Shown here piece after piece: positions 23,220 through 36,870 of a DNA stretch of 64,000 nucleotides. The stretch comes from Camelus ferus (Eukaryota): positions 87,360,001 to 87,424,000 of the forward strand of contig NC_045696.1 in assembly GCF_009834535.1 (NCBI RefSeq), in the 5' to 3' direction. Below the pieces are notes generated by a model. The model was given only the letters and a program-made list of their open reading frames with translations. It had not been told where the DNA came from and ran no database searches. The position numbers were made by a program, and so were the translations under genes. Numbering within the stretch: position 1 is the stretch's first letter; each line of letters begins with the position of its first letter.

Positions 23220-23777
23220 TGTTAGGTAGTTAGATAAGTGGGCGCACTAGGCTGATAAGGTGGACCAAAGCAAAGATGGTCAGGAAGATGGCGGTATGCC
23301 CACCTCAAGCATAAAGGGGCTTTAGTTCCTCTAAATGAGTGCCAGCAAGAAACCAGTTAGAACCCAAGAGCTGCAAGTGCATGGTAGTGAGAAGGACCTA
23401 ACTGGACATGACCCAATGCTCATTGTAATATAATTAACATTGTGTGATTTAGGCCCCATTCCCATGGGTTTTCCTGTACGCATCATGGGTAAGGACATGC
23501 ACAAAGGGGACAAACATGACTAAGCATTCCAGGGGCAAGAGCTGTCAATCAATCAAAAGACCTCCTCTAAGCGGGGGTGTAAGAGAAGGGGCACACAAAG
23601 GTCGTGGCTTTTCCTCCCTTGGATCAGCTCGCTTCCCATTCTTGGAGGTATACTTTTCCTTTGCTAATAAATTCTTTAAAAATCTTTCACTATACAATGT
23701 TCTGTCTACCATCTGAAATCTTATCTTTGGGGTATGACAAGAACTGGGGTCTTTTCCCTTCCCCTTTTAGGGTAACA
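23220..23777 (+). mobile_element. ERV1-class solo LTR (same family as 35018-35695)
   Basis: TGTTAGG...GGGTAACA ends; AATAAA near 23666; long collinear similarity to 35156-35695. Confidence 0.92.
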
Positions 23778-24013
23778 CTAATATGCTGCTAGGCAAGATA
23801 CTATGCTCTTGGCATCAGGATATGGATCAGCTCTCTTTCCCCTGAAGTCCCACTGCAATGATGCTAACAGAGGCAGAAGGATGTTGCCTATGCAGTGGTT
23901 TTGCATTACAGCCGAGGGACTTGAAGTTTGGGGAACCATCAGCTGTATAGCAAAGATAAGCAATCCTATTCTTTGTCCCAGAAGAAAAAAGAATCTCATC
24001 TCTGAAGGTTACG

Positions 24014-31900: not shown

Positions 31901-33162
31901 TGGATATACACACCTTAAAAATGTTACCTGGCTCTCTGGAACGAGATGATGAGGCATCAGGTTCAAATCCCATAGCTTGGGTCATAGGAATTTTTATTAC
32001 ATGGTTCCTACCTAGTTCTTCATAATGTACTTCCACTATTATTATAACCTTGTCAAGGCCAAATTTTCTTTATGCTCAAGTGCAGCTCACTGACAGCACA
32101 TTAAATGTCATTACAAAAGAGACTTTAGATAAATTTAAACTAACTTAGATAATTTAAAAACCAAAAATATTTGCATTTACCACAGAATGCCATTTTTCTA
32201 TTTCTTTTTTCAGAAAGTAAAATATATATTGTTTTACTTGTTCTCTAGAGAAAATAAATTGAGCAGTTATTGGGCCTAATTTCACGTACAAATGTTTACA
32301 AATTTTCAAATGAACTTGTCTTTAAAAGAATCTATACTGTAGTGATTTTTAAAAGGACTTCCCTAAGAAAATAAAAACAACTTTAAAATGTTATATACTC
32401 ATTTCCACTAATTTAAAGGATCAAATAAATTGTTTATTTTTGCTGAGGAGTTATTCAAATTATAAAGTGTCTCTCATCCCACTGCCTTCAAAAATCATGT
32501 GCTGTTATTCATACCAAACAGCATTTCAACAGATTAGTAGTTTAAGTAAGAATAAAATAGATTTTTATAAATATTCCAAACAATTTGATTACACTGCTGG
32601 AAATGACTTGTAAACATTATGGATTATGAGATTTTACTGCCATCTTCTGATGAAAGCACTTTATGAGAAAAGAAAAATGTTTAGAAACTTTTCAAAGGAA
32701 ATTTTCTCCAATTTACTTGTGTTTGGGGATGGGATGCTGGAAGAACATACGGAAATGAGTTATGTTAGTAACACACATGTAAGTTACTCACTGCTCCATT
32801 TTCCCAAACATGTTACTACCATAGAGCCGACTTCCTTTCTGGCCATTTTTAAACAAGAGTTTCAGTAGTCCCTGGGATGAGTTAGAGTGTAAGTCATTGG
32901 AATTGTTTAGTGATGCTCCCTTTTACATTGGCACATTTAAATATTGCAACATAATGATTTAGTTAATTGCAAAAGCTCTAAGTAGGGTTTTAACCTGGAT
33001 GATCATTAAAAGCATTTAACATCAAGGAACTTGACGTTTATTGTCCTCTTTCTGAATCAAGTACTATTGAAATTCTGTTTTTCTACTTTATTTTTAACCT
33101 ATAAATTCCGAAGGAAAAGTTAATGCGGTATTATCACCCCATTGTACAGATGATTAAGTTGG

Positions 33163-33624
33163 AATACAGTGCCTGGCAGGACCCTGTGAGGCCTTCCCGG
33201 GTCAGATCCCTCCCCTATCTCCTCTGCTGCAGCTCCTCTCTGAACTACCCAGATAATAGCATCTCATATATATTTCCTGAGTTTTCCAGATGCTGAAAAC
33301 CACCATCAAAGGGAAGAAATTAACTACTTGATGATCAAGAGCACATAGACCTAAACCTTCTGGTGCCTAGGGGTTGATAGTTACTGGCCGCCCTGTTGTC
33401 TCAACATAAACCAACCAGAGAATTGTGCACGAGCTGAGCCCGGAGCCTCCAACCCCCCTCCCTTGCTTGGCCTTTAAATATGCTTTGCTGAAACCCTTCT
33501 GGGAGTTCAGGGTTTTCTTGGGTATAAGCCACTAAGTCCTCCTTGCTCTGCCCTGCAATGAACCTTTTTCTGTTCCAAATTCCCATGTTTCAGTTTGGCC
33601 TCAGGAACTTGCATTTGGTTAACA
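33163..33624 (+). mobile_element. ERV1-class solo LTR inserted in a MIR
   Basis: cctttaaatatgctttgctgaaaccc...gcaatgaacc...ggaacttgcatttggttaaca; MIR-like tattatcaccccattgtacagatga on the left. Confidence 0.85.
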
Positions 33625-35017
33625 GGCCTACCGTGAGCTTGCCGAATAATTCTATGCTAGTCATACTTGCTCCCTTATTCAGAATGAATGTAATGTTTCA
33701 TAATGACCAGCCCACAACATCATGCCTGTGCCCTCTTGCATAAACTTCTGAGGTGACAAAATGCTCGATTCCCCTCTTTCTCTCTCCTCCGCTTTGTCCC
33801 TCTCTGTTGCAGGTACAGGTTGAGATATGAGAAACTTCACTTGTCTACAGTATAATTTGAGATAGAAAACACTGGACAGAATGATCACAATCTGCAAGCT
33901 CTGACACTCACCACTCGTGGCTATTTTAGTGGCTGGACAGTTTCCAAACCATGGGGAGAGCTTAATGGGAAGCTCATCAGAAATGTTGAGAATTCCTTTT
34001 TTGGGGTATCTTTTCTTCTTTTGCAGCTTTACCATGTGACATTTCCTGTAATTATGCCCCATAAACTCCTCAATCCTCTTATATCTACTGACTATTCCTT
34101 TAGAAAACTACTGATACTAATTTAAACTTAATTGTAAAACATGAGCAAAGCTCACTGATACTTTTCCCAGGTATATTTTCACTTTAATGATTGTGACATT
34201 TTTAAATAGTTGCCTCTAATTGTAGGAATTAGATTTCTGTCCCACTTATGCATATAGCAGCCTTTTTTTAGTCTTGAGAAAGCAAAACTAGACCAGTGGT
34301 GGTGACTAGCACATACTATATCCTTGTGTAAATGACAAAAAATGCTCCCTATAGACACATCACAAAAAGCAAATTTTTTTTTTTTTTTTTTTTGGCTAAA
34401 ATACCCTTTAACCAGGGATCTGAGCTTGGTGAGGGAAGCTGACTGGAGGTCACTGTGAACTGCTTAAACTGCACAACCATATGCGACGACTCCAATTAAT
34501 GTAGGATTCTAAGAGTTCTCTTGTTTTCTCATTTAATTGCTGTCTACAGTAGATTTTTATGGTGTCTTTGCGTACTACTTCTCTGCCCATCAGCCAATGA
34601 GTATACGTGAGCAACTGTCAGGGCTTCAGCCTAGACCCTGTTCTGTGCTCACTCTACATTCTCTCTCGGCAATCTCAAAATCTCTTTTATGCTCATGTGT
34701 TCAATGCCCCAGGTATACCCACTGTTGTATTTCCTTCCTGGCTTGCTCAGTCCTCTAGACTGAAATGTATCCCTTAATTTCCTGAAAGCTGCACTTTCAT
34801 GTTTCACATTCATTTAAACCCCAAATACTCTAAACTTAACTTGTGACCTTTCCAAGTCTATTTCTTCTATAGAAGTTTTAATTTCAATAAACTGCCCTAT
34901 TAGCCATCTAGAAAATTATAAATAACCTTTGCTTCTTTATCTTCTCCCTCCAAAAACTGCACATCTGCCTCCAACTCTACTGCTTCCATTTTGATATGTT
35001 ACCTTCATTTCTCACCA

Positions 35018-35695
35018 TGTTAAGCAGTTACTGGCCCGGAGCCTCCAACCCCCCTCCCTTGCCTGGCCTTTAAATATGCTTTGTTGAAACCCTGCTGGGA
35101 GTTCAGGGTTTTCTTGGGTATAAGCCACTAAGTCCTCCTTGTCCTCTTTCTGAATCAGTTAGGTACGTGGAGGCACCGAGGAGATGAGGTGGAGGCGAGG
35201 GAGAATGGTCTCAAAGATGGCAATATGCCCACCTCTAGCATAAGGAGCTTTACTTCCTCTAAATGAGTGCCAGTAAGAAACCAGTTGGGACTGGACAGCT
35301 GTGGTAGCAACAAGGACCTAACTGGACATGACACAACACATATTGTAATAAAATTAGCATTGCAGTTTAGCACCTCCCCCTTACCCCCCTGTGGACATTT
35401 CTGTGTCCATCATGGGTAAGGACACGCGCAAAAGGGGATGGGCATAACTAAGCACTCCAGGGGCAAGAGCTGTCAATCAATCAAGAGACCTCCTCTAAGC
35501 AAAAGTATAAGACAGAAGGACAATGAAAGACTGGGCTACCATTCTCTTTTGGATCAGCCTGCCTTTCACACTTGGAGGTGAACTTTGGCATTGCTAATAA
35601 TATCTTTAATATCTTTAAGTACACAATGCTTTTGTCTCCTGTCTGAACTCTTTCGGCGGAGACAAGAACCAAGGCCTCCCCCTTAGGGGGTAACA
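35018..35695 (+). mobile_element. ERV1-class solo LTR carrying a templated insertion near its 5' end
   Basis: TGTTAAGCAGTTA...GGGTAACA; 4-bp TSD ACCA (35014-35017 and 35696-35699); homologous to 23220-23777. Confidence 0.92.
35034..35141 (+). repeat. Direct copy of 33438-33545 (108 bp, 3 mismatches)
   Basis: Base-by-base comparison within the window. Confidence 0.97.
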
Positions 35696-36870
35696 ACCAT
35701 TCCTATGATTTAAGTTGTCTGAGGCTCCCCATGATGCTTCTGTCTATCCCTGTTCTCCTTTCATTACATCTGTCAGAGGGCCTTTTAAATACAGAGGTCT
35801 GGCCACATCATTTCCCTGCTCAGAATCCTTCTAAGCTTTCCTGTTGCTTGGAGCATGTATGATTGGCTCCGGCCCAACACTCCTGCTTTGGGCACACCTC
35901 TCTCTCTCTTCATGCTGGATGAAGATTTATACTGGATTTCCTGCATTTCCTTGAACACAGCACATTCTCTCATTGGAGGATCGACCATTACACATGGTTT
36001 TCTCTGCCCAGAACATTCTATCTTTGCACCTAATATGCCTTTTTTTTTTTTTTTTCAGTTCTCAGCTAAAAAGTTACTCTCCTGAGCCTGAGGTTAAATA
36101 GTTGTCCTCCCAAATCCTTACCCCTCAGTAATATAAAATCCTCTAGGACCTAATACTGTTCATTTGCTTTTACCTTTACCACTTGAAATCATTTGATTAC
36201 TATGTCTACCTGGACAGGCTGTAAATTTCATGGAGACAGGGACCTTGTCTGCTGCATTAATGACATCTCAACCATCTGACATTGTGTCTGACACATCAGA
36301 GGCACTCAATAAATATGGTTAATTAGCTATGACATTCATTCATTAGCTTATTCTACATATACTCATTTTAAAACTGCTATAAACAAGGCAATGTGCTATT
36401 CCATTTGTGAACAAATTCCACTTAATATAATATGAAGTACGGGTTGGAATAGGTAAAATATGAAATCAAGGTAGGACCACATTTTAACTATCTTTTACAC
36501 TGATTTTATTCAAAATCGCTGTCATATGGTTATTTATAGCCCTATTCGTATTTCCTGTATTTTGTGGTACTTTTAGTTGACAAAAGATACCATAGCCCCT
36601 GGAAGTTCTGTATTATTTCTATGGTGAATATAGTTAAAATACTCTCAGAAAGTTACCTTCTGGTTTACATTCATCTGGTTCATTAAGTTTCAACATTTGA
36701 CAATGTCATTTACTAACTAACGTACATTTCAGAAGTTTGTGTTCAACTTTAAACCTCTTCCATTTCCTCATCAAAAGTATCTGCCATATTTTAAATAATT
36801 TTCAAAGGTTATGAACTTCCAATTATATTTAATGCAAGCAATTTCTTTATACCTTTTAGTTCCAAATTTT

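Follow-up and report, generated by a model that had tools for sequence, protein, structure and literature searches.

A germline insert of microhomology-joined local pieces inside a solo LTR of Camelus ferus

Introduction

Repair-mediated duplications were described by Pace et al. (2009; PMC2671141), who reported 824 within 5 kb in human and 202 in cow. The median length was 147 bp and the distance between donor and insert peaked near 1.2 kb. At the junctions, that study recorded microhomologies of 2–9 nt, filler of 1–68 nt and a target duplication in 6 of 39 cases. Twenty duplications were two-donor chimeras, five of them with both donors local, and three-donor cases may exist in its Table S1. 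The filter for single-copy donors was a limit of the pipeline, and its authors stated that repeat donors were excluded. Complex germline MMB-TI was reported by Osia et al. (2021; PMC8421209) in 33 of 103 and 26 of 99 events; one complex event was shown with three templates, and up to five templates were reported. Among 166 rearrangements, Frith and Khan (2018; PMC5829575) found two double duplications and one three-fragment case. Germline inserts built from three templates are already described in the latter two studies (PMC8421209, PMC5829575). In the Pol-theta TINS reported by Carvajal-Garcia et al. (2020; PMC7165422), first tracts are seldom longer than 10 bp.

Here, we describe an insert of this kind in Camelus ferus. 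The window is the whole stretch of DNA analysed (64,000 nt; contig NC_045696.1, positions 87,360,001–87,424,000), and coordinates below are window positions unless stated otherwise. No published description of the locus was found in the literature searched on camel endogenous retroviruses and templated insertion.

Insert and local templates

The motif CAGTTA was present at 35025 and again at 35156, so the net insertion was 131 bp, placed 13 bp inside a solo LTR. The LTR resumed at 35156, where copies of its family began to match. The features were as follows.

33041..33059, + strand: template of piece iii, lying outside the donor LTR in its upstream flank
33174..33624, + strand: donor solo LTR of family A, which supplied pieces i and ii
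33379..33389, + strand: template of piece i, inside the donor LTR
33438..33545, + strand: template of piece ii, inside the donor LTR
35018..35695, + strand: recipient solo LTR (family B), with TG...CA ends and an exact ACCA target duplication on both sides
35025..35030, + strand: left copy of the duplicated 6 bp; the final five bases are microhomology with donor i
35026..35036, + strand: piece i, copy of 33379–33389 (11/11)
35034..35141, + strand: piece ii, copy of 33438–33545 (105/108)
35139..35157, + strand: piece iii, copy of 33041–33059 (19/19)
35156..35161, + strand: right copy of the duplicated 6 bp; the first two bases are microhomology with donor iii

Every inserted base had a local template, and the templates of all three pieces lay on the same strand as the insert, 1,485–1,990 bp upstream of the insertion site. 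The junction microhomologies were, from left to right, 5, 3, 3 and 2 bp, and the insert carried no poly(A/T) tail. Piece i contributed just three new bases, flanked by two microhomologies. Piece ii carried a C-rich run and a TTTAAA-type box at 35069. An initial annotation of the window had already given the coordinates, orientation and match counts of the pieces (three mismatches in piece ii), the four microhomologies, the LTR start at 35018 with its ACCA target duplication, the resumption at 35156 and the duplicated CAGTTA, and all of these were recovered from the sequence. Its description of the pieces as shuffled applied to piece iii, the only one out of order, but not to pieces i and ii, which keep their order with a 51-nt skip between them. 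It was also correct in placing the sources 1.5–2 kb upstream, with the amendment that piece iii came from the flank, outside the donor LTR.

Comparison with described classes

The best-fitting named class is the repair-mediated duplication (PMC2671141), whose testable defining features were all present. An insert of at least 50 bp (131 bp here) lies in a transposable element that is contiguous in its family; donor and insert share a chromosome and are separated by over 50 bp but under 5 kb (1,485–1,990 bp here); one parental copy is identifiable (97% identity versus ≤91% elsewhere, among the best 40 of 679 candidates); and there is no poly(A), with microhomology at the junctions and a short target duplication (6 bp here). 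The locus differs from the set described there in three respects: three pieces were placed, of which those of 11 and 19 nt would count there as "filler"; the main donor is a repeat, a type that the pipeline filtered out; and the recipient was compared with paralogous family copies rather than with an empty orthologous site.

With complex MMB-TI (PMC8421209), the insert shares several microhomology switches, the return to the original place and the germline setting. Unlike the classical form given there, an inverted copy whose template is no more than 100 bp away, the insert is all direct and lies 1.5–2 kb from its templates. As in the non-tandem duplications of PMC5829575, non-adjacent local segments were copied and inserted side by side; in the double cases of that study the insert lies between its sources, whereas the present sources all lie to one side of it, and, in contrast to its cases, the present event is old and common to related organisms. 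Pol-theta TINS (PMC7165422) resemble the insert in iterative priming at short microhomologies (four microhomology junctions here), in direct-repeat products from cross-break priming and in having the longest microhomology last. Those inserts are 3–30 bp, with a template ≤50 bp from the break, in contrast to the 108-bp tract and the 1.5–2 kb found here. The insert was not filed under Pol-theta TINS or classical MMB-TI because it lies outside both definitions, although it looks like the work of iterative microhomology-primed synthesis.

Recipient LTR family

The recipient LTR was 20.0% divergent from other family B copies. From its 4-bp target duplication we take it to be ERV1-like, and the terms U3 and TATA-like are used for these LTRs on the assumption that the usual LTR anatomy applies. 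A genome search with the recipient LTR returned 1832 candidates, of which the best 40 were scored (39 besides the LTR itself). Among these, 38 of the 39 matches started at or after query position 139, the point of LTR resumption, and one started at position 114. The insert was absent from all 29 family copies fetched, in which the LTR started a few bases before the resumption point; L010 and L014, both among these 29, are duplicates of each other and so were counted twice. The insert is thus not part of the family consensus; membership of the consensus was what the initial annotation had named as refuting its account. No other locus spanned an insert junction (0 of 38 among the best 40 scored of 679 candidates).

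The recipient family was also considered as a hotspot for local duplication. This was rejected, with no local duplication in 58 LTR-centred loci (201,553 bp).

Two further observations were made on family B. L010 (C1:31.03 Mb) and L014 (C1:122.42 Mb) were 99.4% identical across 3.5 kb, one of them near a contig end, and represent either a recent segmental duplication or an assembly duplicate. A sister copy at 23220–23778 was 73% identical to the recipient over 509 bp, and its flanking 4-mers agreed at only two of four places.

Presence across sequencing runs

Most of the words of 34700–35500 were contained in 20 runs from 11 studies. Eight of these runs, from seven studies and with three organism labels, were examined as assembled contigs, not raw reads; four runs with a share of 0.00 were small and uninformative. 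Contigs bridged the two left junctions in all eight runs. Among the pieces listed, the last junction was bridged in at least three (X1, X3 and X12) and the junction between pieces ii and iii, by 31 or more letters, in at least one (X3). The initial annotation had argued from the mismatches to the donor that the insert is not an assembly artefact. The bridged left junctions and three fixed-looking differences from the donor bore this out, and the insert is confirmed as real and germline. An artefact would be in keeping with the use of contigs and with the fact that, among the pieces listed for the eight runs, none spans the whole insert; set against junctions recovered in seven studies, it has a negligible probability.

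The insert is apparently fixed. No joint skipping it occurred among the joints listed (15 of 68 in one set, 5 of 5 in the other), and no intermediate allele was seen among the contig pieces listed for the eight runs; contigs drop rare alleles, which limits the meaning of an absent empty allele. Because no empty orthologous site was seen in these runs of close relatives, the state before insertion was inferred from paralogous copies. Flank variants at 33106, 33627, 33682 and 34608 (window 32900–35800, runs X1–X17) were common to organism labels A, B and C, and each run had 0–4 differences in about 2.4 kb of flank. Judged by these sequences, the three labels appear to be very close relatives, and shared presence therefore gives a weak lower bound on the age of the insert. 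Run X17 had no difference from the window across its long pieces and may be non-independent.

In run X10, one contig (depth 12, window 33468–33913) had the insert's letter at donor site 33498, and another short contig kept the donor's letter there. The former contig either records a gene-conversion allele or was misjoined across the 47-bp core in which donor and insert are identical.

Donor identity and age of the insert

A genome search with the donor LTR gave 1872 candidates, of which the best 40 were scored (39 besides itself). The donor was 15.8% divergent from other family A copies. Donor-rare sites were defined as those where the donor's letter was found in ≤3 of 29 donor-family copies. 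The insert carried the donor's letter at 12 of 12 such sites (10 of 10 in piece ii and 2 of 2 in piece i). Over piece ii, the 29 other copies matched the insert at 80–92 of 108 letters; identity was 97% to the local donor and ≤91% at 38 other loci (best 40 of 679 candidates). Another family A copy as the source was ruled out by the 12 shared rare letters together with the match of ≤92/108 elsewhere.

As side observations, about 7 nt were missing from the donor LTR just inside its 5′ end (33170–33182) relative to natural copies, and its flanking 4-mers differed at one place.

The sharing of all 12 donor-rare letters indicates that this particular donor was the source of the insert and that both LTRs had long been in place when the copying occurred. 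The divergence leads to the same timing, since donor and insert differed by 2.3–2.8% (95% interval about 0.5–8%) versus 15.8% and 20.0% in the two families. At the three sites of difference, the natural copies sided with the insert once (22/29) and with the donor twice (27/29 each). By this criterion, the donor has changed once and the insert twice, as expected if both copies aged. At 2.2e-9 per year, the estimated age of the insert was 5–6 million years (interval 1–18), and at half that rate the age doubles; the rate is the one used in PMC2671141. Error-prone synthesis could explain the insert's two changes and would make it younger. The insert was about 6–9 times younger than the spread of either LTR family.

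Copying so long after LTR insertion rules out that the insert arose during reverse transcription or integration. A recombinant retroelement, or a stretch belonging to the LTR family, is suggested by the position of the insert 13 bp from the LTR start and by the co-orientation of the two LTRs that are its main partners. Such an origin is hardly credible given the family copies without insert, the absence of its junctions from the loci scored, its relative youth, and its content of flank sequence unique to this locus.

Chance expectation for the short pieces

The match of piece iii to its template is not a chance one. Its 19-mer had exactly two copies in 2.09 Gb, at the donor and in the insert, and 0.03 further copies would be expected by chance in the genome. 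In the sequence around the window, none of 261,610 positions had a 19-mer with a direct copy 100–2100 bp upstream. In four other regions, 157 of 791,124 positions did, all of them falling in seven duplicated or repeated loci.

Piece i is the weakest of the three, because it adds three new bases only and has an equally long rival: an 11-mer starting at 35024 matches 23106 by chance. In its favour, only 145 of 261,618 positions around the window had an 11-mer copied within the 550 bp over which the donors extend, and both letters of this piece that are rare in the donor family recur in the insert. If piece i is left out, the two remaining junctions would have microhomologies of ≥3 and ≥2 bp by chance with a probability of about 0.009.

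Mechanism of insertion

The insert likely arose in one repair event, long after both LTRs had inserted. We favour, with modest confidence, a model in which the end of a germline double-strand break was copied repeatedly from the resected tail of the other end. Provided that both terminal microhomologies were used, the left end would have finished with the 6-bp unit and the right end would have begun with it, so that the break left two ends overlapping by 6 nt. The 3′ strand of the right end would then have primed on the long, resected single-stranded tail of the left end, so that the template would be the strand exposed by resection. Copying would have run from piece iii to ii to i, primed by microhomologies of 2, 3 and 3 bp, with a skip of 51 nt from ii into i at the 3-bp microhomology, and would have ended when the extreme tip of the left end captured the strand through a 5-nt match. 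This geometry accounts for templates that lie on one side, in direct orientation and within 2 kb. Size, distance and junction type were within the range of repair-mediated duplications. Germline (meiotic) breaks are resected by 1–2 kb per side (PMC7615360), and in Pol-theta products the microhomologies of later rounds tend to be longer than the first (PMC7165422). Against the model, tract length and template distance exceed the Pol-theta definition.

A two-ended break and template switching at a stalled fork would give the same junctions, which also fit FoSTeS/MMBIR. Read rightwards, a nascent + strand would have left at 35030, jumped by −1647, +51 and −502 to copy pieces i, ii and iii from the same template strand 1.5–2 kb away, and come back 6 nt before its point of exit; no two-ended break would be required. 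Switches of 2–5 bp are used in MM-BIR (PMC7407515), and germline inserts from three to five templates were ascribed to template switching in PMC8421209. The classical signature given in the latter source is an inverted copy with its template no more than 100 bp away, whereas no piece is inverted here and the templates are 1.5–2 kb off; nor does fork switching by itself account for the longest microhomology being at the extreme tip. We regard it as unlikely, though a serious contender. The initial annotation had offered polymerase theta or FoSTeS/MMBIR; microhomology-joined synthesis on local templates was upheld, while canonical Pol-theta activity was not, given the 108 bp copied from 1.5 kb away.

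That annotation also spoke of three serial switches. Because pieces i and ii keep their order, these are indistinguishable from two templates followed by a 51-bp deletion. In such a two-step history, 33379–33545 would have been copied whole together with piece iii, and the deletion would have followed, at whatever time, between two GCC triplets of that copy. Pieces i and ii are indeed collinear, in the same orientation and joined by a plain skip with 3 bp of microhomology, and duplications with two local donors made up 5 of the 824 in PMC2671141. The history is nevertheless improbable, as another, independent event would have had to hit a target of 180 bp, no intermediate allele appeared among the contig pieces listed, and none of 29 donor-family copies lacked the 51-nt stretch.

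A hairpin as the cause of the skip between i and ii was tried and rejected: 33370–33550 folded no better than shuffled sequences (z = +1.26; 181 of 200 folded as well).

Very little probability attaches to the capture of loose fragments by end joining, in which flaps or resection products from the sister chromatid would be ligated and templated synthesis would play no part. Several fragments caught at one break have been described (PMC11724301), and microhomologies of 2–3 bp are within the range of end joining. However, all three pieces are co-oriented (1 in 4 to 1 in 8 by chance), two are as short as 11 and 19 nt, the entry match is 5 bp, 6 bp are duplicated and the donor is intact.

More specifically, and with considerable doubt, the scar could be the fossil of a long-resected, possibly meiotic germline break with a 6-nt 3′ overlap and three primings on the 2-kb single-stranded tail of the opposite end, with microhomologies of 2, 3, 3 and 5 bp, produced by a Pol-theta-like activity at 30–40 times its defined reach. 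If so, germline resection length could be gauged in any mammalian genome assembly from how far such scars lie from their donors, and further local templates would account for much of the "filler" at repair-mediated duplications.

Structure and significance of the chimeric LTR

Piece ii contains the conserved TTTAAA-type box of the donor family (the same 8-mer in 23 of 29 copies) and ends 11 bp short of where the poly(A) signal of that family lies. The moved box is at position 52 of the recipient LTR, and the TATA-like motif that belongs to the recipient itself (35505) follows 436 bp downstream. The initial annotation's chimeric LTR therefore exists structurally. It is a single solo copy that has not spread, with no sign that the box works; further genomic copies with the same junctions numbered 0 of 29 family copies and 0 of 38 loci (best 40 of 679), and the 19-mer occurred at this locus only. 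Scans for Pfam domains and CpG islands gave no gene evidence nearby and so lend no support to a regulatory effect of the moved TATA-like box: 13 of 14 long ORFs in the window had no Pfam match and one was below the cut-off, in a search that would miss small exons, and no CpG island was present in 264 kb. By its sequence, the insert seems to show no sign of function, and its product is most likely neutral.

The locus shows an ordinary mutational process cleanly and in full resolution, and taken alone it changes nothing known. The repeat families supply the direction and relative age of the copying. Its value is as an illustration of two ideas: that the short "filler" at local duplications has been copied from templates, and that the distance to the donor mirrors the extent of resection.

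Local duplications in the surrounding and unselected sequence

One local duplication, the present one, was found in the 264 kb around the window. Unselected sequence was searched for matches of 30 bp or more, with 90% or more identity and 50–5000 bp apart. In 800 kb, one match was left after four tandem ones were dropped. Inspection of seven loci (approximately 0.8 Mb of unselected sequence) gave five candidate local duplicates, and none of the five had an abutting extra piece. With about five simple duplicates per 0.8 Mb and none of multiple pieces, the three-piece form represents the rarer tail of a common class. Two simple local duplications were seen on C5: two exact copies of a 41-bp core separated by 1,737 bp near 40,009,840 (L103–L104), and a 24-bp doublet 650 bp apart near 40,106,490 (L113).
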